Assembly (NCBI GenBank): GCA_034436335.1
Contig: DAOTVO010000025.1
Span: 28,921 to 92,920, forward strand
DNA: 64,000 bases
Direction: 5' to 3'
DNA from: Anaerolineales bacterium
GTDB taxonomy: Bacteria; Chloroflexota; Anaerolineae; Anaerolineales; Villigracilaceae
Under the pieces are notes generated by a model that worked only from the letters and a program-made list of their open reading frames with translations, made no database searches and was not told the origin of the DNA. The translations under genes were made by a program, and so were the position numbers. Shown in pieces: positions 11,224 to 57,615 of this stretch. The number at the start of each line of letters is the position of its first letter. Within the stretch, counting starts at the first letter, position 1.

Positions 11224-11405
11224 ATACTGACCACTGACCACTGATAACTGATAACTGCCATGACCATCTCCACCTACACCTACCCCCCTCCTGTCCGTCC
11301 TCTCCGACCTACCGCCTTGCCGCCGAAGGACAACCCCAATTCGTCTATCACACCGCCGTTGCCGATTTCGCCGCCTTTGGCGCGGATTCCCCCGTCTGCG
11401 TCGAA

Positions 11406-25254: not shown

Positions 25255-25495
25255 GCTACCTCCTAAAGGGATGGCGAAATTATAACACCTTGCGAAACGC
25301 ACATTGCGTCTCTTGTTCAGGAATAACACTGTCAGCGGAGTTTCGTCACTGCCGGAGGTTTAGTTTGCCTTCAACTAATGGCCTTTTTGGAGCCTGTTTT
25401 GGAGCCTACTGTAGGCTATATTTTAGTTAGTTTGTCTTCCAGGTGTATCGTTCGGTTCAGAATACCAAATTATTTCGACATGAGGAGATTTCTTC

Positions 25496-26062
25496 ATGAA
25501 GCACCATGGTCTTCAGCTACAGAATATGGTTTCTGTCTTAGTAACAGCACTCCTTGTCGTGCAAACGCTACTGCTGATACTTGTGCTTATAAATTTGAAG
25601 GTTATGAGACAGACGATAGCGGCAGGGGCGATATCCCAAAATGATCCATCTGCATCTCTCATCGGCAAACAGGCACCAGATTTTACGTTACCCGATGAAA
25701 AAGGGGATTTGGTGACGCTTTCCGAATATAAAGGTTATCTTGTGTTGTTGGTATTTACATCTCATACTTGTCCCTTTTGCCGTGATATGTACCCTGGCCT
25801 ACGCCAATTTTTAGACAGCAATCCTGATATTCAAGTTATGATTCTATCAACGAACACCACTTTAGAGAATCAAACCTTTCTTGAGGAGTTCAATCTCACC
25901 AACTATGTAAATCTACGCGTGTTGTCCACGACAAGAGAGGTGGTTGAGAAATACCTTATCAAAGGCACGCCCACTTTTGTTGTGATTGACACAGATGGAT
26001 CAATTTTGAATACCGGTTATGCCATAACCGCAGAACAAATATCGGGGCTTATCAGCAAATAG
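25496..26062 (+). CDS. membrane-anchored thioredoxin-fold thiol:disulfide oxidoreductase (TlpA/ResA-like)
   Basis: N-terminal TM helix, GKQAPDFTLPDEKG, active-site CPFC, cis-Pro region GTPTFVVID. First gene of the low-GC island. Confidence 0.85.
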   Translation: MKHHGLQLQNMVSVLVTALLVVQTLLLILVLINLKVMRQTIAAGAISQNDPSASLIGKQAPDFTLPDEKGDLVTLSEYKGYLVLLVFTSHTCPFCRDMYPGLRQFLDSNPDIQVMILSTNTTLENQTFLEEFNLTNYVNLRVLSTTREVVEKYLIKGTPTFVVIDTDGSILNTGYAITAEQISGLISK

Positions 26063-26088
26063 TCAATGACTGAGAAAGGAGAGTGCCA

Positions 26089-26373
26089 ATGACTTCTCTA
26101 CCGTTTTTGCCTTCAAGTAAATCTCTACAGCGTGTTGTCTCTTTAGTGCTGGTGAGCACGCTTGTTGCTCTAACAATATCAGCAGTATTTGCCAGCCCTG
26201 TAGAGGCAGTAACAAATTGTGACCCCTGGCTCGAGAGTGGGCAATGCTGTGACAACCCCTATTGGCCCTTCCACCAGGATTTAAAATACCGGATATGTCA
26301 AAATTGCTGGACTGGAGGATGTTCCGATCCTTGGACAGAGTGGATATGTCCTATCTTCACAATCTGTCCCTAA
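26089..26373 (+). CDS. secreted cysteine/tryptophan-rich peptide precursor (94 aa, 8 Cys)
   Basis: AGGAG 26077-26081 lies 7 nt before ATG 26089. Sec-type signal peptide ending ...AVFASPVEA. Predicted 54-aa mature part VTNCDPWLESGQCCDNPYWPFHQDLKYRICQNCWTGGCSDPWTEWICPIFTICP. Confidence 0.65.
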   Translation: MTSLPFLPSSKSLQRVVSLVLVSTLVALTISAVFASPVEAVTNCDPWLESGQCCDNPYWPFHQDLKYRICQNCWTGGCSDPWTEWICPIFTICP

Positions 26374-26450
26374 TAGCGTATTCCAAGTAAAATGAGTTTT
26401 TCTGCCCAAACTGATAAGCCCCGATTCAGTTTTGTGGAGATGGAATAAAA

Positions 26451-27341
26451 ATGGCCAGAACAAACTCGATTGTGATTAAAGATGTCGTCAAACGCTATCG
26501 AGGTACAGCCCGCGATGCGCTTCATCAAGTTTCATTAACCTGTGATTACGGCGTTTTCGGCCTATTGGGACCAAATGGCGCGGGAAAAACAACCCTCATG
26601 CGCATTCTTGCCACCCTGATTTTACCCACCTCAGGCCGGGTAACTGTGCAAGGCTATGATGTTGTGGATAAACCACATCTGGTGCGTTCGCTGATCGGAT
26701 ATGTGCCTCAAGAATATGCCTTATACTCTCATTTGACAGCGTGGGAGTTTTTAGATTATATGGGAACGTTGAGTGGGGTGCAACGCATCCGTCAGCAAGT
26801 GGAGCGGGTACTTGCCCAAGTAGGACTATTAACCGTCGCCCGTCGACGTCTTAACAATTTCTCAGGAGGCATGAAACAGCGTGTGGTAATTGCTCAAGCA
26901 CTATTACATAGCCCCCAAGTTCTGTTGGTGGACGAACCTACTGCCGGCTTGGACCCCGTTGAACGTGTTAAATTTCGCAACTTGCTGGCTGAGTTGGGGC
27001 GAGAGCGAACAATACTTCTCTCCACTCACATTGTCGAAGATGTTTCTGCTACCTGTAAACAAATGGCTGTTCTCCATGAGGGTTGTATTGCTTACCAAGG
27101 AAGTGTAGAAGATCTGGTTGCCCTCGCTAAAGGAAGAGTATGGAAGGCCACGATACACACAGATGAGTGGAATTATTTCCGTGACGCTCACTACGTTATC
27201 TCTTCTCGACCTGCGGAGCAGTCCAGTCTGATAGAGGTGAGGTTTCTCAAGCGAAATTCTCAACCAACCAGCAATGCAGAACCAGTTTCTCCTACCATCG
27301 AAGACGCCTATTTGTCACTCATTCAGGCAGGGAATTCTTGA
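26451..27341 (+). CDS. ABC transporter ATP-binding protein (ABC-2/DrrA-type)
   Basis: Walker A GPNGAGKT, signature FSGGMKQR, Walker B LLVDEPTAGLD, H-loop STHIVED. Confidence 0.9.
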   Translation: MARTNSIVIKDVVKRYRGTARDALHQVSLTCDYGVFGLLGPNGAGKTTLMRILATLILPTSGRVTVQGYDVVDKPHLVRSLIGYVPQEYALYSHLTAWEFLDYMGTLSGVQRIRQQVERVLAQVGLLTVARRRLNNFSGGMKQRVVIAQALLHSPQVLLVDEPTAGLDPVERVKFRNLLAELGRERTILLSTHIVEDVSATCKQMAVLHEGCIAYQGSVEDLVALAKGRVWKATIHTDEWNYFRDAHYVISSRPAEQSSLIEVRFLKRNSQPTSNAEPVSPTIEDAYLSLIQAGNS

Positions 27342-36071: not shown

Positions 36072-36103
36072 TGTCAACGTTTCAACGTGTCAACGTGTTA
36101 ACG
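36072..36103. repeat. 8-bp word stutter TCAACGTK x3-4
   Basis: TCAACGTT TCAACGTG TCAACGTG TTAACG. Encodes the last residues (VNTLTR*) and the stop of the S9 peptidase. Confidence 0.75.
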
Positions 36104-38030: not shown

Positions 38031-38059
38031 TTGACGGATTCCGCTCCGCCTGATAAACT
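38031..38059 (+). promoter_or_regulatory. sigma70-type promoter for the cold-shock gene (TTGACG-17-TAAACT)
   Basis: -35 at 38031-38036, -10 at 38054-38059. This leaves a ~130-nt 5' UTR, as is common for csp genes. Confidence 0.5.
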
Positions 38060-38195
38060 GCTGTCCAGGTTTGCATGTGTTCATGCTGGAAGAGAATGAC
38101 CGGCCGGAACAAAGCACCAATGTTCAGGCCGTTTTCTTATCCGGCAGATACAAGCAACAATTTCACTCTTTTTTGCAAAAGCAAGGAGAAGTACA

Positions 38196-38405
38196 ATGTC
38201 AGAACGTGTGACCGGCAAGGTCAAATGGTTCAACGCCTCGAAGGGCTACGGCTTCATCGAGCGCGAAGGCGGCCCGGACGTTTTCGTCCATTTCAGCGCA
38301 ATTCAGAACGAGGGCTTCAAAACCCTCAACGAAGGCCAGGAAGTTGAGTTCGAAATCGAACAGGGACCCAAAGGCCTGCAGGCGGCCAAAGTCAAGCCGA
38401 TGTAA
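38196..38405 (+). CDS. csp: cold-shock protein (CspA family)
   Basis: [15 protein letters not shown] (RNP1) and DVFVHFSAI (RNP2). 69 aa. Confidence 0.95.
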
Positions 38406-38423
38406 TTCGAAGAATTGCAAATT

Positions 38424-38456
38424 AAAAATCCCTTCCCGTGCTGGGGAGGGATTTTC
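38424..38456 (+). terminator. intrinsic terminator after csp
   Basis: Stem AATCCCTTCCC/GGGGAGGGATT followed by TTTTC. Preceded by an A-run, so it may act in both directions. Confidence 0.7.
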
Positions 38457-38475
38457 GATTCGGCTAATAAAAAAG

Positions 38476-38799: not shown

Positions 38800-39873
38800 C
38801 TATACGAAGTTTCTAACTATCATCCCGCCGCCGAGGACGAGGTCGCCCTCGTAGAAGACGGCCGCCTGGCCCGGCGTCAGGTCGCGCACCGGCGCGTCGA
38901 AGCGGACCCGCGCCCGGCTCCCCGCTTCGAGCGGCGTCACCTCCGCCGGGACTTCGCGAGCGGTGTAACGCGTCTTGACCTCGGCGCGGAAGGAGGCGGC
39001 GGGCGGCGCCACCGAGGCCCAGTTCACGTTCGTCACCAGGCATTCCTGCACGCCCAGTTGCTCCGCCGCGCCGACGATGAGGGCATTGCGGGCAACGTCT
39101 TTTTCCAGCACATAGAGCGGCACGGGCGAGGCGATTCCCATCCCCTTGCGCTGGCCGATGGTGTAGTCGGCCAGGCCGGTGTGGGTGCCGAGCGTCCGGC
39201 CATCGCGGGTCAGGATGGGGCCGGGGATGAGCGTCTGCGGGGCATGACGGCGCAAGAAGGCGCGGTAATCCTCGCCGGCGAGGAAGCACAGGTCTTGGCT
39301 ATCGGGACGGTGGGCGGTGGGCAGGCCGAAGGTCTGGGCCAGGGCGCGGATTTCGGGCTTGGAGTACTCGCCCACCGGGAAGAGGGCGCGGGCGAGTTGC
39401 TCCTGGCTGAGGACGTGCAGAACGTAGGACTGGTCTTTGGCGCGGTCCACGGCGCGCAGCAACTGATGCCGGCCGCCGTCTACGGTCTTCCGTCGCACGT
39501 AGTGACCGGTGGCCATGAAGTCGGCGCCCATGTCGAGGGCGCGGCGGAGGAGGAAGTCCCAGCGGATGAGGCGGTTGCAGACCAGGCAGGGGTTCGGGGT
39601 TTGACCGGCAGCGTAGCCTTCCAAGAAGTACTCGACGACGGTTTGGCGGAAGAGGTCTTTGGCATCCAGCACGTAGAAGGGGATGTCGAGTTTGGCGGCG
39701 ACGCGGCGGGCGAGAGTCATCGCGTCGGGCGTGCAGCAGCGGTTGGAGTCTTCTTTGCCCGGTTCGGACCACAGCCGCAGCATGATGCCGATGACTTCAT
39801 AGCCTTGCTGTTTGAGCAGGGCGGCGGCGACGGAGGAATCTACGCCTCCAGACATGGCAACGACAACTTTCAT
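38800..39873 (-). CDS. mnmA: tRNA 2-thiouridine(34) synthase MnmA
   Basis: MKVVVAMSGGVDSSVAA PP-loop, CC.PD and C..C.R motifs. Confidence 0.9.
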   Translation of the reverse strand: MKVVVAMSGGVDSSVAAALLKQQGYEVIGIMLRLWSEPGKEDSNRCCTPDAMTLARRVAAKLDIPFYVLDAKDLFRQTVVEYFLEGYAAGQTPNPCLVCNRLIRWDFLLRRALDMGADFMATGHYVRRKTVDGGRHQLLRAVDRAKDQSYVLHVLSQEQLARALFPVGEYSKPEIRALAQTFGLPTAHRPDSQDLCFLAGEDYRAFLRRHAPQTLIPGPILTRDGRTLGTHTGLADYTIGQRKGMGIASPVPLYVLEKDVARNALIVGAAEQLGVQECLVTNVNWASVAPPAASFRAEVKTRYTAREVPAEVTPLEAGSRARVRFDAPVRDLTPGQAAVFYEGDLVLGGGMIVRNFV

Positions 39874-39909
39874 AACTAACCCGAGATAAACAAGATGAGG
39901 AGGTAAGAA

Positions 39910-40308
39910 TCAAGAGCGGGAGGACTTCCAATTTGGGGAGGGGTAGAGGCGGCGAATCTGGATGCGGGACTTGCCAAAGTTGATGAGCAGGCAAATCTCT
40001 AGTCCGCTGGCGCGCAGGTAATTGAGCGCTTGCGCCAGATGATCATCGGTCAATTCGGAAACAGCCTTCAACTCGACAAGGATTCGATCTTCGACAAACA
40101 TATCCGCAAAGAAATCGCCAACAATGACACCATCATACACCACTTTGATGGGATACTGCTGAATCACCTTCAGCCCCTCTTTTCTCATCCGATGGGCATA
40201 GGCATTTTCGTAAACTTTTTCCACAAAGCCGATGCCCAGCGCATTGCTGACCTCAAACGCGCAAGCAATCATCCTCTTGGTCAGTTCATCGAGCGTTGCG
40301 TCTGCCAT
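39910..40308 (-). CDS. GxxExxY-family protein (PD-(D/E)XK fold)
   Basis: GIGFVEKVYENAY ... VELKAV ... Q.LNYL...G...LLINFG. G+C is lower than in the neighbours. Confidence 0.85.
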   Translation of the reverse strand: MADATLDELTKRMIACAFEVSNALGIGFVEKVYENAYAHRMRKEGLKVIQQYPIKVVYDGVIVGDFFADMFVEDRILVELKAVSELTDDHLAQALNYLRASGLEICLLINFGKSRIQIRRLYPSPNWKSSRS

Positions 40309-40336
40309 CTTCGACCTCGTTCATCAAACCAAAAAC

Positions 40337-40564
40337 GTTTATCTCCGTTCATCTCCGTTTATCTCCGTTCATCTCTGGTTCATCTCTGGTTCATCTCCGT
40401 TTATCTCCGTTCATCTCTGGTTCATCTCCGTTCATCTCTGGTTCATCTCCGTTCATCTCTGGTTCATCTCCGTTCATCTCTGGTTCATCTCCGTTCATCT
40501 CCGTTCATCTCTGGTTCATCTCCGTTCATCTCCGTTTATCTCCGTTCATCTCTGGTTCATCTCC
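40337..40564. repeat. 22-unit tandem array of 10/11-bp words GTT(C/T)ATCTCC / GTTCATCTCTG
   Basis: Counted unit by unit: 14 ten-mers plus 8 eleven-mers = 228 bp, mean period 10.36 bp. A degenerate leader GTTCATCAAACC lies at 40319-40330. The last unit contains the stop of the cysteine desulfurase gene. Confidence 0.95.
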
Positions 40565-41714
40565 GGTTCCGGTTCGCCTTCTCGACCAGGCCAGGCAGGG
40601 CAGAGAGAAAGGCTTCAATTTGCGCGGTGGTCGTCCCGGCACCGAGGGTGACGCGCAGTGAGCCGAGACCCCACTCGCGCGGCAGGCCGAGGGCGGTCAT
40701 GACCTCGCTCGGCTGCGGGTTGCCGCTCTTGCAGGCCGAGCCGGAGGAACAGGCAAAGCCGGCGGCATCGAGCAATTGCAGCAAGTAGTTGCCGTCGGCG
40801 CCCTGGAAAACGAACGAGGCGTGATTGGGCAGCCGCTCAAAGGGATGGCCGGTCAAACGGGCCTCCGGCACGGACTCCAGCACCGCGCCGATGAGATGGT
40901 CGCGCAGCGGGCGGACGTGAGCCGCGCGGGCCTCGCGCTCCTCCGCCGTCAGGCGCAGGGCCTCGGCCAGGCCGACCAGGTACGGCACGTTCGAGGTCCC
41001 GGCGCGGCGACCGCCCTCCTGCCCGCCACCGGTCAATTGCGGCAGGAGCGGCGTCCCGGCACGGACGTAGAGCGCGCCGACGCCCTTCGGGCCATAGAAC
41101 TTGTGCGCGCCCAGCGAGAGCAAATCCACGCCCAGAGCCTGCACATCCAGCGGCAGGTAGGCCGCCGCCTGCACCGCGTCGGTGTGGAAGAGGACGCCGC
41201 GGGCGCGGCAGACGGCGGCAATTTCGGCAATCGGGTTGACCGTGCCGATCTCGTTATTGGCGTACATAACCGAGACGAGGGCCGTCTTTCGGTCAATCGC
41301 CCGCTCCACCGTCTCAGGCGAGAGGCGGCCGAATTCGTCCACCGGCAGCCACTCGACGCGGAAGCCGTAATGCTGCTCCAGGTCGGCGGCGGTCTTGCTG
41401 ACGGCGGGATGCTCGGCGCGGCTGGTCAGAATCCGGTCGGCACCGGTCTGTTCGCGCACGGCCAGGGCCGCGCCGCGCAGGGCCAGGTTGTCCGCTTCCG
41501 AGCCGCAGGAGGTGAAGATGATCTCGTCCGGACGGCAGTTCAGGACGGCGGCAACCGTCTCGTGGGCCTCGTCCACAGCCGCCTCGGCGCGCTGTCCGTA
41601 GCGGTGAACCGACGACGGGTTGCCGAACGTTTCGCTGAAGAAGGGCCGCATCGCCTCGAAGACGCGTTCGTCCACGGGCGTGGTGGCAGCGTAATCCAGG
41701 TAAATTCTGTCCAT
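40557..41714 (-). CDS. cysteine desulfurase (NifS/IscS-like class V aminotransferase)
   Basis: IYLDYAATTP..., SLGAHKFYGPKG (PLP Lys), SSGSAC active-site loop. Confidence 0.9.
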   Translation of the reverse strand: MDRIYLDYAATTPVDERVFEAMRPFFSETFGNPSSVHRYGQRAEAAVDEAHETVAAVLNCRPDEIIFTSCGSEADNLALRGAALAVREQTGADRILTSRAEHPAVSKTAADLEQHYGFRVEWLPVDEFGRLSPETVERAIDRKTALVSVMYANNEIGTVNPIAEIAAVCRARGVLFHTDAVQAAAYLPLDVQALGVDLLSLGAHKFYGPKGVGALYVRAGTPLLPQLTGGGQEGGRRAGTSNVPYLVGLAEALRLTAEEREARAAHVRPLRDHLIGAVLESVPEARLTGHPFERLPNHASFVFQGADGNYLLQLLDAAGFACSSGSACKSGNPQPSEVMTALGLPREWGLGSLRVTLGAGTTTAQIEAFLSALPGLVEKANRNRR

Positions 41715-41737
41715 AAATCACGATTATAATCCACTGC

Positions 41738-43489
41738 ATGTTCCTGCCAACGACCCCCGAAGAAGTCCGCCGCCTGGGCTGGGATGCGCTCGACGTCATC
41801 CTGGTGACCGGCGACTCGTACATTGACAGCCCCTTCATCGGGGCGGCGGTCATCGGCAAGGTGCTGTGGAACGCCGGCTACCGGGTCGGCATCATCGCCC
41901 AGCCGGACGTTTTGGACACGGGCGACATCGGACGCCTCGGCCTGCCGCGTCTCTTCTGGGGCGTGACCGCCGGCTGTGTCGACTCGATGGTCGCCAACTA
42001 CACCGCCCTGAAAAAGAAACGCCGCTCGGACGATTACACCCCCGGCGGCGAGAATACCCGCCGCCCCGACCGGGCGACAATCGTGTACAGCAATTTGATT
42101 CGCAGGTTCATGAAATCCGTCCCCTCCCCCTCCACTCTCTCCCGAGGGGAGAGGGGACCTGCCATCCCCATCGTCCTGGGCGGAATCGAAGCCAGTCTGC
42201 GGCGCGTGGCGCACTACGACTACTGGGACGACGCCATCCGCCGCTCGATTCTCTTCGACGCCAAAGCCGACTATCTCCTCTACGGCATGGCCGAGCGCAG
42301 CGTCCTGGACCTGGCGGCCTGTCTGCGCGACGGACGCGACCCGCGCGGCGTGCGCGGCCTGTGCTACATCGCCAAAGAGCCGCCCGCCGGCTACCTGGAA
42401 CTGCCCGCCTACGAGACCGTTGCCGCCGACAAAGAAGCCTTCACGCAGATGTTCCACACCTTCTACCGCAACAACGACCCCGTCAGCGCCCGCGGCCTCG
42501 CCCAGAAACACGCCGACCGCTACCTGGTCCAGAACCCGCCCGCTCTCACCGAGACGCAGGCCGAACTGGACGCCATCTACGCCCTCGACTTCGAGCGCCG
42601 CCAGCATCCCTTCTACGAGCAGCAGGGCAAGGTCAGGGCGCTCGAAACCATCGGCTTCTCCATCGCCACCCATCGCGGCTGCTACGGTGAGTGCAACTTC
42701 TGCGCCATCTCCGTCCACGAGGGGACGACCGTCCGCTGGCGCAGCCCCGAGTCCATCCTGGCCGAGGCCGAGCGCCTGACGCGCCACCCGGACTTCAAGG
42801 GCTACATCCAAGACCTGGGCGGCCCGACAGCCAACATGTACGGCTTTGAATGCCCCAAGAAACTCGCCAAGGGCATCTGCACCGCCAAGCGCTGCGTCTT
42901 CCCCGAAGTCTGCCCGCTCCTGCCGGTGAATCACCAGCCGCAGACCGAACTGCTGAAGAAAGTGCGCCGCATCCCCGGCGTGAAGAAAGTGTTCGTCGCC
43001 TCCGGCCTGCGCTACGACCTGCTGCTGTGCGACCGCGACCACGGCGACGCCTACCTGCGCGAACTGGTGGCGCATCACGTCTCCGGGCAACTCAAAGTCG
43101 CCCCGGAACACGTGGACGACCGCGTCCTGGGGCTGATGGGCAAACCGGGGAGTCAATCCCTGCTGGAGTTCAAGCGCCGCTTCGACGCCCTGAACCGCCA
43201 GGCGGGCAAGCGGCAGTTTCTGACCTACTACCTCATCGCCGCCCACCCCGGCTGCAGCGAGGCCGACATGCAGCGCGTCAAACACTTCGCCAGCCGTGAA
43301 CTCAAGATTCACCCGGAGCAGGTACAGGTCTTCACCCCCACCCCGTCCACCTACTCCAGCCTGATGTACTACACCGAGCGCGACCCGTTCACGGGCGAGC
43401 CGCTCTTCGTGGAGAAAGACCTGCGCCGCAAAGCGCGGCAGAAGGAAGTGGTGACCGGAGATGAACAAACCAGAGATAAACGGAGATGA
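41738..43489 (+). CDS. ygiQ: YgiQ-family radical SAM protein (UPF0313)
   Basis: N-terminus MFLPTTPEEVRRLGWDALDVILVTGDSYIDSPF and CYGECNFC cluster. Confidence 0.9.
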   Translation: MFLPTTPEEVRRLGWDALDVILVTGDSYIDSPFIGAAVIGKVLWNAGYRVGIIAQPDVLDTGDIGRLGLPRLFWGVTAGCVDSMVANYTALKKKRRSDDYTPGGENTRRPDRATIVYSNLIRRFMKSVPSPSTLSRGERGPAIPIVLGGIEASLRRVAHYDYWDDAIRRSILFDAKADYLLYGMAERSVLDLAACLRDGRDPRGVRGLCYIAKEPPAGYLELPAYETVAADKEAFTQMFHTFYRNNDPVSARGLAQKHADRYLVQNPPALTETQAELDAIYALDFERRQHPFYEQQGKVRALETIGFSIATHRGCYGECNFCAISVHEGTTVRWRSPESILAEAERLTRHPDFKGYIQDLGGPTANMYGFECPKKLAKGICTAKRCVFPEVCPLLPVNHQPQTELLKKVRRIPGVKKVFVASGLRYDLLLCDRDHGDAYLRELVAHHVSGQLKVAPEHVDDRVLGLMGKPGSQSLLEFKRRFDALNRQAGKRQFLTYYLIAAHPGCSEADMQRVKHFASRELKIHPEQVQVFTPTPSTYSSLMYYTERDPFTGEPLFVEKDLRRKARQKEVVTGDEQTRDKRR

Positions 43490-43566
43490 ACCAGAGATGA
43501 ACGGAGATGAACAAACCAGGGATAAACGGAGATGAACAAAGTCGGTTTATCTCTGGTTATCTCCGG
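43456..43566. repeat. same word family, seven reverse-orientation units followed by two forward units
   Basis: Reverse units CGGAGATGAAC, CAGAGATAAAC, GGAGATGAAC, CAGAGATGAAC, GGAGATGAAC, CAGGGATAAAC, GGAGATGAAC, then forward GGTTTATCTCTGGTTATCTCCGG. Contains the ygiQ stop (43487-43489). Confidence 0.9.
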
Positions 43567-43589
43567 TAAAACAAAAACTCAAAGGCTTT

Positions 43590-43726
43590 CTTCGTGAGCC
43601 TTTGTGCCCCCTTCGCGCCCTTCGTGTTAAAAACCCAAACAAACCTTCGTGAACCTTTGTGTCCCCTTCGCGCCCTTCGTGTTAAAAACCCAAACAAACC
43701 TTCGCGTCCCTTTCGTGTTGAAAAGG
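43590..43726. repeat. 2.5 tandem copies of a 55-bp unit built from CCTTCGYG words
   Basis: Copies at 43590-43644 and 43645-43699 differ at 2 of 55 positions. A partial third copy lies at 43700-43726. Confidence 0.9.
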
Positions 43727-49252: not shown

Positions 49253-49349
49253 CCAGAGAGAAACAGAGATGAACAAGGGTATTTTGGCCTTTCGACAGCC
49301 GAAAGGCGGTGTTCATCAAACAAATCCTGTTTATCTCCGTTCATCACCG
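49253..49349. repeat. word-family palindrome around a perfect 8-bp hairpin
   Basis: Reverse units CAGAGAGAAAC/CAGAGATGAAC (49254-49274), hairpin GCCTTTCG-ACAGC-CGAAAGGC (49287-49307), then forward units GTTCATCAAAC, GTTTATCTCC, GTTCATCACC (49311-49348). Confidence 0.85.
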
Positions 49350-53845: not shown

Positions 53846-53882
53846 AAGGCTCCTTTTGTGAGCGAGAGAACCATTGAGAAAC

Positions 53883-53921
53883 GGGATAAACTCTAGTTCA
53901 TCTCCGTTTATCCTGATGAAT
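53883..53921. repeat. word-family hairpin GGATAAAC ... GTTTATCC enclosing GTTCATCTCC
   Basis: 8-bp complementary arms at 53884-53891 and 53906-53913. Followed by GATGAA. Confidence 0.75.
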
Positions 53922-57500: not shown

Positions 57501-57601
57501 GTTACAGGGCAGTTACACGAGAGTTACAGGGGCAGGGTCGAAAACCAAACGGAGACGAACAAAGAGAAATGGGATCGTTGGATGAGCGGCTGTTCATCCA
57601 A
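57501..57601. repeat. three 11-bp GTTACA words, then degenerate GTTCATC-family units with an 8-bp hairpin
   Basis: GTTACAGGGCA / GTTACACGAGA / GTTACAGGGGCA (57501-57534). CGGAGACGAAC (57550-57560). Hairpin TTGGATGA-8 nt-TCATCCAA (57578-57601). Confidence 0.75.
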
Positions 57602-57615
57602 CAAATCGGTTTTTA

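Follow-up and report, generated by a model that had tools for sequence, protein, structure and literature searches.

The window analysed here is a stretch of 64,000 nucleotides (64 kb) from an Anaerolineales bacterium. On its minus strand a gene for a cysteine desulfurase of the NifS/IscS type is followed by one for a GxxExxY protein (TIGR04256) and then by mnmA, and a tandem array of short words stands in the 248-bp spacer between the stop of the first (40557-40559) and the start of the second (40308). The features of the locus are as follows.

38800-39873, minus strand: mnmA (tRNA 2-thiouridine synthase), the downstream operon partner
39878-39891, minus strand: remnant of the 3′ arm, a single degenerate antisense word, GTTTATCTCGGGTT, 4 nt ahead of the mnmA ATG
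39910-40308, minus strand: GxxExxY gene, 132 aa (PF13366 PDDEXK_3, TIGR04256)
40309-40336, minus strand: conserved leader GTTTTTGGTTTGATGAAC with an SD-like GAGG and 6 nt, leading to the GxxExxY ATG
40337-40564, minus strand: 22-unit tandem array, probably the 5′ (upstream) arm of the GxxExxY cassette in amplified form; the homologous arm in relatives has two words
40565-40570, minus strand: outer terminus GGAACC, before the first word, fitting the consensus of such termini in the family, t(g/t)(g/t)AACC[G/A]CAGATGAAC
40557-41714, minus strand: cysteine desulfurase gene, its final codons and TGA stop drawn from the first word (..CGG AGA TGA)
41723-41750, minus strand: promoter-like TTGGCA-16-TATAAT (11/12; consensus scan only), ahead of the cysteine desulfurase

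The initial annotation of this DNA had named the same three genes and given the same spacer length, and both are upheld. The last two residues of the cysteine desulfurase (RR*) are encoded by a repeat word (40557-40566). Consensus scans of the minus strand found no promoter- or terminator-like site between the promoter-like site of the desulfurase and mnmA so that, as far as such scans alone can indicate, the array is most likely transcribed within one operon. The other neighbours of the array are CspA, a peptidase S9, a TrmI-like methyltransferase, YgiQ and RlmL. There are no tRNA genes in the window and, according to Rfam, no rRNA; the sole Rfam match, away from the array, is a cspA thermoregulator at 38052-38457 (78.5 bits, at the gathering threshold) covering the cold-shock gene at 38196-38405, its flanks and its 5′ leader. 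Elsewhere, at about 25300-30300, a 5-kb island of 43-48% GC lies within a genome of around 60% GC. Its four co-directional ORFs encode an AhpC/TSA-thioredoxin-like protein, an ABC ATPase and proteins of 730 and 228 residues without a Pfam match, and it was possibly acquired horizontally.

The 228 bp from 40337 to 40564 split exactly into 22 head-to-tail units, ten of GTTCATCTCC, four of GTTTATCTCC and eight of GTTCATCTCTG. Start-to-start spacings are exclusively 10 or 11 bp, with 14 units of the former length and eight of the latter, and TRF reports periods of 21, 31 and 52. Across the window there are 32 matches to the word GTTYATCTCY, whereas shuffles predict 0.34 and never exceeded 2. The array of 14 plus 8 units first described is thus borne out by exact parse, TRF and word count alike. 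On the transcribed minus strand the units read GGAGAT[G/A]AAC (10 bp) and CAGAGATGAAC (11 bp), and the terminus beside them, GGAACCGGAGATGAAC, conforms to the family consensus. All three plus-strand frames are free of stop codons, and the three phantom plus-strand ORFs said to cross the array (from 40030, 40232 and 40296) are indeed present. The minus strand carries 22 stops (4, 9 and 9 by frame) and 18 AUGs; the initial annotation had described an SD-like GGAG plus AUG/UGA in each unit. By itself the array is unstructured (fold z +0.33). It has no Rfam match at gathering thresholds and, its units being of 10 and 11 bp, it does not belong with the 7-bp STRR or TAACTGA heptamers.

The GxxExxY protein matches PF13366 and TIGR04256 only, a PD-(D/E)XK family whose function is listed as unknown (PMC3424549). 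In a cross-phylum alignment of 14 sequences, E30, D69, E79 and K81 never vary. An AF2 model (pLDDT 72) gave weak matches to PD-(D/E)XK folds alone (E at least 0.05) and so does not point to any particular nuclease subtype. PADLOC returned no defence-system match, a PDB sequence search no significant match, and there was no match to a recognised transposase family. With this one query, 2,385 homologs in several phyla were found at E ≤ 1e-10.

Homologs at 65-95% identity are numerous, and the order cysteine desulfurase-GxxExxY-mnmA is kept across a Chloroflexota (Anaerolineales-like) clade. The loci collected from this clade (L019, L040-L050 and L138-L143) all adjoin the cysteine desulfurase, mnmA or both, most of them lying between the two; L019 was seen after the desulfurase only and L050 before mnmA only. 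Wherever the contig covers both flanks, the ORF is bracketed by sense words upstream and antisense words downstream. Upstream, the order is desulfurase stop, AACC, sense words, GTTT..TTTGATGAAC, a ribosome-binding site (GAGG) and the ATG. Downstream it is ..GTTCATCAA..ATCC, antisense words with CCGGT at their end and, a few bases on, the mnmA ATG. The leader TTGATGAAC of the window has in relatives a mirror copy, GTTCATCAA, 3′ of the gene. The array therefore forms one side of an inverted repeat that encloses the neighbouring GxxExxY gene, a relationship that the initial annotation had overlooked.

The usual state in relatives is two words on each side, constant across the six contigs of a group at 80-81% identity. 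In L143 the upstream arm consists of CCAGAGATGAAC and GGAGATGAAC, an 11-mer and a 10-mer that together make 21 bp and are identical to the alternating super-unit of the window; the downstream reverse-complement words of relatives are GTTTATCTCC GTTCATCTCTGG. Amplification of such an ancestral two-word arm (11 + 10 = 21 bp) would account for both the 10/11 alternation of the array and its mean unit of 10.36 bp. Word numbers at the orthologous site run from two in relatives through about nine in L019, which has around nine sense and four antisense units, to 22 in the window. The opposite arm varies too: the 95% identical relative L040 has three antisense words downstream, as against one degenerate word in the window, where the gap between the GxxExxY gene and mnmA is 36 bp. 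In three metagenome samples encoding an identical GxxExxY protein (L043, L044 and L045) the distance from the gene to mnmA is 113, 181 and 271 bp, the differences being differing numbers of 22- and 24-bp antisense super-units, and the upstream arm differs as well. The earlier suggestion of a hypervariable tandem repeat is thus supported by comparison of unit numbers, both with the two words of close relatives and among samples of one sister lineage.

L082 occupies the same spacer between the cysteine desulfurase and mnmA, but its protein is nearest to copies found in other contexts (70.7% identity, whereas the main clade reaches no more than 63.8%). In a nearest-neighbour bootstrap its closest relative lay within the main clade in only one of 200 replicates. 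As judged from these protein comparisons, the pattern hints at mobility or replacement, with an independent occupation of the spacer.

The same words occur at four further intergenic sites in the window, none of which has a GxxExxY gene of its own.

43456-43567, plus strand: gene-less element of seven sense units followed by two antisense units (43545-43567); hairpin, z -4.7
49253-49349, minus strand: gene-less 'empty cassette' of two sense words, a central small hairpin (49286-49307), GTTCATCAAACAAATCC and two antisense words; z -4.0
53866-53913, no strand assigned: short palindromic copy, GAACC..GAGAAACGGGATAAAC / GTTCATCTCCGTTTATCC; z -1.8, weak
about 57545-57610, no strand assigned: degenerate copy, GGAGACGAAC ... 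GTTCATCCAACAAATCGG

The initial annotation had proposed a genome-wide word search and held that confinement of the word to one locus would count against it; the word is present at these four sites and in relatives. Gene-less palindromes are also seen in metagenomes, at L073 (z -14.8), L124 (z -8.1), L078 and other loci. Five gene-less copies were folded, the first three of the list together with L073 and L124, and four of them form hairpins with z from -4 to -15, the exception being that at 53866-53913. In the first element the words at 43456-43489 supply the 3′ end of the YgiQ radical SAM gene, 11 codons and the stop (TGDEQTRDKRR*). The TIGR03904 model stops at residue 572 of the 583 of YgiQ.

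Other short-word arrays are found in the window. Immediately after the 43456-43567 element, a 55-bp unit is repeated 2.3 times at 43590-43718, with CTTCGTG, CTTTGTG and CTTCGCG words. Between convergent gene ends at 34545-34651, a 40-bp super-unit is present in 2.7 copies with the words CACGGATT/CACAGATT. At 36053-36103, about five octamers GTTTCAAC/GTGTCAAC form an array in the spacer, on a 34-bp scale, between minus-strand genes for the TrmI-like methyltransferase and the S9 peptidase. The reverse complements of the 43590-43718 words, CACGAAGG/CACAAAGG, are present in another Anaerolineales MAG (L015). A heptamer array at 11226-11266 (two ACTGACC and two ACTGATA) contains (TAACTGA)n, here in a Chloroflexota-like genome; the TAACTGA intergenic heptamer has been reported in Beggiatoaceae, Cyanobacteria and some Bacteroidetes (MacGregor 2015, PMC4679880).

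The architecture extends well beyond the orthologous locus. A metagenome scan with the GxxExxY alignment yielded 80 loci at 50-74% identity, 74 of them with both flanks, and these show the same arrangement with lineage-specific word variants such as CACAGATGAAC, CGCAGATGAAC, CGCCGATGAAC and CACGGATGAAC. A gene-bracketing inverted repeat (z > 4) surrounds 81% of the 74 GxxExxY genes, compared with 2.4% of 82 control ORFs from the same loci. The median z of these repeats is 9.9 and the median arm is 34 nt, the two arms being 87% identical, and the outer terminus t(g/t)(g/t)AACC[G/A]CAGATGAAC is common to both. Word spacing is exactly 10 bp in 82 of 85 cases, around the consensus C[G/A]CAGAT[G/A]AAC, and word positions outside the search pattern are 94-96% conserved. 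The near-helical phase pointed out for the window (10.36 bp) is accordingly a family-wide property. Since none of 67 loci has an arm of six or more words, the 22 units of the window are an extreme outlier. No consistent target-site duplication was seen by eye in the flanks of the metagenome loci. The orientation of the cassette is modestly shared with that of its neighbours, in 43 cases against 17 upstream and 33 against 26 downstream by crude ORF calling.

A second scan sought runs of three units in a single genome from each species and produced 35 loci. Several of these, in Anaerolineales, Chloroflexia and Acidobacteriota, have the same mixed-word look, L019 being the orthologous locus itself, while the matches in Prevotella, Legionella, Shewanella and elsewhere possibly have nothing to do with the family and fit the pattern by construction. 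With the exception of L019, the arrays found by pattern have no GxxExxY gene within 4 kb. The idea that every array adjoins such a gene was therefore rejected, and gene-less copies would appear to outnumber gene-bearing ones. Also rejected was the idea that the upstream gene always ends in a word, as it does so at only 8 of 63 loci. The three-unit scan gave no matches in viral contigs, and hence no link to phage.

Seven distant plasmid-borne homologs (31-42% identity, from seven phyla) lie between housekeeping genes and beside other short word repeats, namely CACAGAGGA, CACAGAGA, ACACGGATTCG, CGCGAAGG, CGCGGAT and AATCCGTG. A significant bracketing inverted repeat is present in two of the seven, from Bacteroides (z 10.9) and Bernardetia (z 7.6). 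The words CACGGATT and CACGAAGG, seen near distant homologs, also form arrays in the window. In Treponema (L053), ACACGGATTCG is the inverted-repeat word around the GxxExxY gene; AATCCGTG flanks the gene in Fusobacteria (L051) and CGCGAAGG words lie upstream of it in Sphingomonas (L056). GxxExxY cassettes recur between normally adjacent operon partners, as at ruvC-ruvA (L061), fabD-fabG (L056), radA and its neighbour (L057) and ade-manC (L054).

Taken together, these data make it probable that the array is the amplified upstream arm of an inverted-repeat cassette, foldback- or REPIN-like in character, which carries a gene of the PD-(D/E)XK family within the cysteine desulfurase-mnmA operon. 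The ground state would be that seen in relatives, where the AACC terminus leads into a pair of sense words (21 bp), and a short leader, the ORF, reverse-complement words and the mnmA start follow in that order. In the present strain the 21-bp arm would have been amplified about elevenfold in tandem, presumably because tandem words mispaired on slipped strands or recombined unequally, and the downstream arm would have decayed to a single word. The words themselves may be sequence-specific recognition sites for a protein, phased on one face of the helix, and the candidate binder is the cassette's own PD-(D/E)XK nuclease. The system would then behave as semi-selfish DNA of the foldback or REPIN/RAYT type, its arms expanding, contracting, decaying and seeding gene-less copies. 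Amplification would also have placed 248 nt of transcribed sequence between two operon genes, in which all three frames are closed by stops and 18 short mini-ORFs begin at an AUG. It probably has no dedicated function, there being no sign that 22 units outdo two. As a counterpoint, the cassette is stably and vertically inherited here across proteins of 65-95% identity, unlike an active transposon, and in this it resembles the RAYTs. It also speaks against the reading that a significant bracketing repeat is confined to two of the seven distant plasmid-borne homologs.

Alternatively, the arms might pair into a long stem in the operon transcript, with the GxxExxY ORF in the loop and the 22-unit arm as an overgrown half-stem. 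RNase III or a similar enzyme would process the stem, excising the ORF or insulating it from the cysteine desulfurase and mnmA messages, much as the ORF-bearing selfish element of the Coxiella 23S rRNA, the intervening sequence (IVS), is cut out by RNase III (PMC4990558). The cassette is co-directional within the operon, and consensus scans found nothing promoter- or terminator-like inside it. As RNA, gene-less copies fold strongly, and the arms co-vary among lineages (GGAGAT, CACAGAT, CGCAGAT). Furthermore, the predicted minimum free energy structure of the L046 cassette RNA joins both arms across some 440 nt (z -4.1), a further counterpoint to our reading. Nevertheless, specific bases and a strict one-turn, 10-bp register are kept in both arms, which a helix would not need. 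The partner arm in the window is nearly lost, leaving an array that is unstructured alone. The mismatches between arms, which are 87% complementary, also bear on the matter. Transversions (145) are as common as transitions (147), and the mismatches that G.U pairing would tolerate number 80, no significant excess over the 67 of the A.C type (p = 0.32), although the power of this test is limited and tandem words leave the register of the alignment ambiguous. An RNA element thus seems rather unlikely and, from the conservation of bases and register and the pattern of mismatches, we infer that the words are protein recognition sites rather than mere halves of an RNA helix.

We consider it distinctly improbable that the array serves as a translational or transcriptional buffer, one of the roles put forward originally, in which modules of SD-like GGAG, AUG and stop would stop ribosomes arriving from upstream, whatever their frame, and load or sequester ribosomes before the GxxExxY gene. 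The sense-strand stops in three frames and the AUGs fit the proposal, the 18 mini-ORFs spanning 4-35 codons, and the R position of GAT[G/A]AAC preserves TGA or TAA either way. The stops of the cysteine desulfurase and of YgiQ fall in words, and in many of the loci an ORF probably starts at the ATG of a word. However, words occur in both orientations with respect to neighbouring genes, and antisense arms are free of stops. Two words suffice as the ground state in relatives, upstream ORFs ending in a word are confined to the small minority of loci given above, and GGAG directly abuts its own AUG.

An assembly artefact, in which mis-assembly of a short repeat created the array or its length, is very improbable. 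Independent short-read assemblies of the same organism were located by exact-protein look-up, and in both GCA_964575045.1 and Logan SRR8581213 contigs stop within the array; one scaffold has an N gap inside it. The contig ends in GCA_964575045.1 nevertheless match the array exactly over units 22-15 and 1-14 (ends of 8 and 13.7 units), so the array and both its ends are real, and a contig of the 95% identical L040 likewise terminates at its array. The junction between units 14 and 15 is outside both contig ends and thereby outside independent coverage and, given this and the N gap, 22 is possibly a lower bound. Many close GxxExxY homologs are known solely on contigs of 0.5-3 kb, which is consistent with flanking arrays breaking short-read assemblies. 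In practical terms, such arrays split short-read assemblies right at conserved operons.

Iterons and the parC site of plasmid R1 are direct repeats of 10-11 bp near the helical period, and the array shares with them a phase that could load protein cooperatively, so that this part of the initial proposal of an iteron- or centromere-like array stands; but a partition or replication site proper is highly unlikely in a chromosomal housekeeping operon, where the Pfam lists of the neighbouring genes lack ParA, ParB, ParM, ParR and Rep, with just two words at the orthologous site in relatives and with words recurring at many intergenic sites, elsewhere in inverted pairs.

The closest likeness in architecture is with the foldback (FB) transposons of Drosophila. 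As described by Potter and colleagues in the early 1980s, these reportedly have long terminal inverted repeats of 10-, 20- and 31-bp tandem units, with arm length said to vary among copies, some of which carry an internal ORF while most do not. Tandem short-unit arms of variable length, in copies with and without an ORF, are likewise the picture here, though as an analogy of architecture only, since FB elements are eukaryotic, far longer and encode other proteins. Terminal inverted repeats with defined outer ends (AACC[G/A]CAGATGAAC on both arms) also recall MITEs and DNA transposons, but there is no recognised transposase here. With micro- and minisatellites (VNTRs) the array has in common head-to-tail units whose copy number differs between close strains, as among L043, L044 and L045 or between the two words of relatives and the 22 of the window.

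In its working, the system would come closest to the REP/REPIN sequences and their RAYT transposases (Bertels & Rainey 2011, PMC3116915; PMC3337134; PMC5581495). In each there are dispersed extragenic palindromic repeats, here the four further copies in the window and many metagenome palindromes. In each, too, a vertically inherited gene of nuclease or transposase type lies between inverted repeat copies, as 81% of the 74 GxxExxY genes do, and the repeat sequence is lineage-specific. The protein differs, being of the PD-(D/E)XK family (PF13366) where RAYTs are Y1 HUH (IS200/IS605-like) transposases, as does the arm, which here has tandem 10-bp words where a REP is a single hairpin. Lacking a Y1 HUH transposase, it is best considered an analogue of REPIN/RAYT and not a member. 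The Coxiella burnetii 23S IVS is similarly a small selfish ORF within complementary flanks, inserted in an essential transcribed unit, and was horizontally acquired and vertically inherited thereafter (PMC4990558). It resides, however, in rRNA helix 45 rather than between the protein genes of an mRNA operon, and its ORF encodes an S23p four-helix bundle rather than a PD-(D/E)XK protein; the mismatch pattern seen here has no RNA signature. Finally, the STRR heptamers and TAACTGA repeats (PMC4679880) are also short intergenic direct repeats of variable number near start and stop codons, shared by distant phyla, but their units are of 7 bp and neither an inverted-arm architecture nor an associated gene has been reported for them.

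A broader reading is that GxxExxY (PF13366) nucleases and phased 10-bp words constitute an undescribed cross-phylum class of foldback- or REPIN-like systems. The protein would recognise the decamers at the ends of its own cassette and generate or maintain gene-less hairpins in Chloroflexota, Acidobacteriota, Bacteroidota and others, and the other arrays of the window (CACGGATT, CACGAAGG and the TAACTGA type) would be footprints of sister systems. We advance this extension tentatively, as a possibility that may well prove too broad. The searchable literature yielded nothing relevant on the words, on related words, on GxxExxY or on PF13366, and no account of arrays flanking GxxExxY genes, although the curators of TIGR04256 may have noted something; the same had been said at the outset, where no description of the element was known.

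The array is apparently the visible tip of a widespread, undescribed family of elements. What had looked like an anonymous microsatellite becomes a testable system, in which the genes of GxxExxY proteins, a large multi-phylum family without known function, are systematically bracketed by inverted, helically phased arrays of decamers. If the nuclease acts on its own words, REPIN/RAYT would gain a second counterpart, with a different mechanism, that could account for many of the intergenic tandem repeats of filamentous and environmental bacteria.
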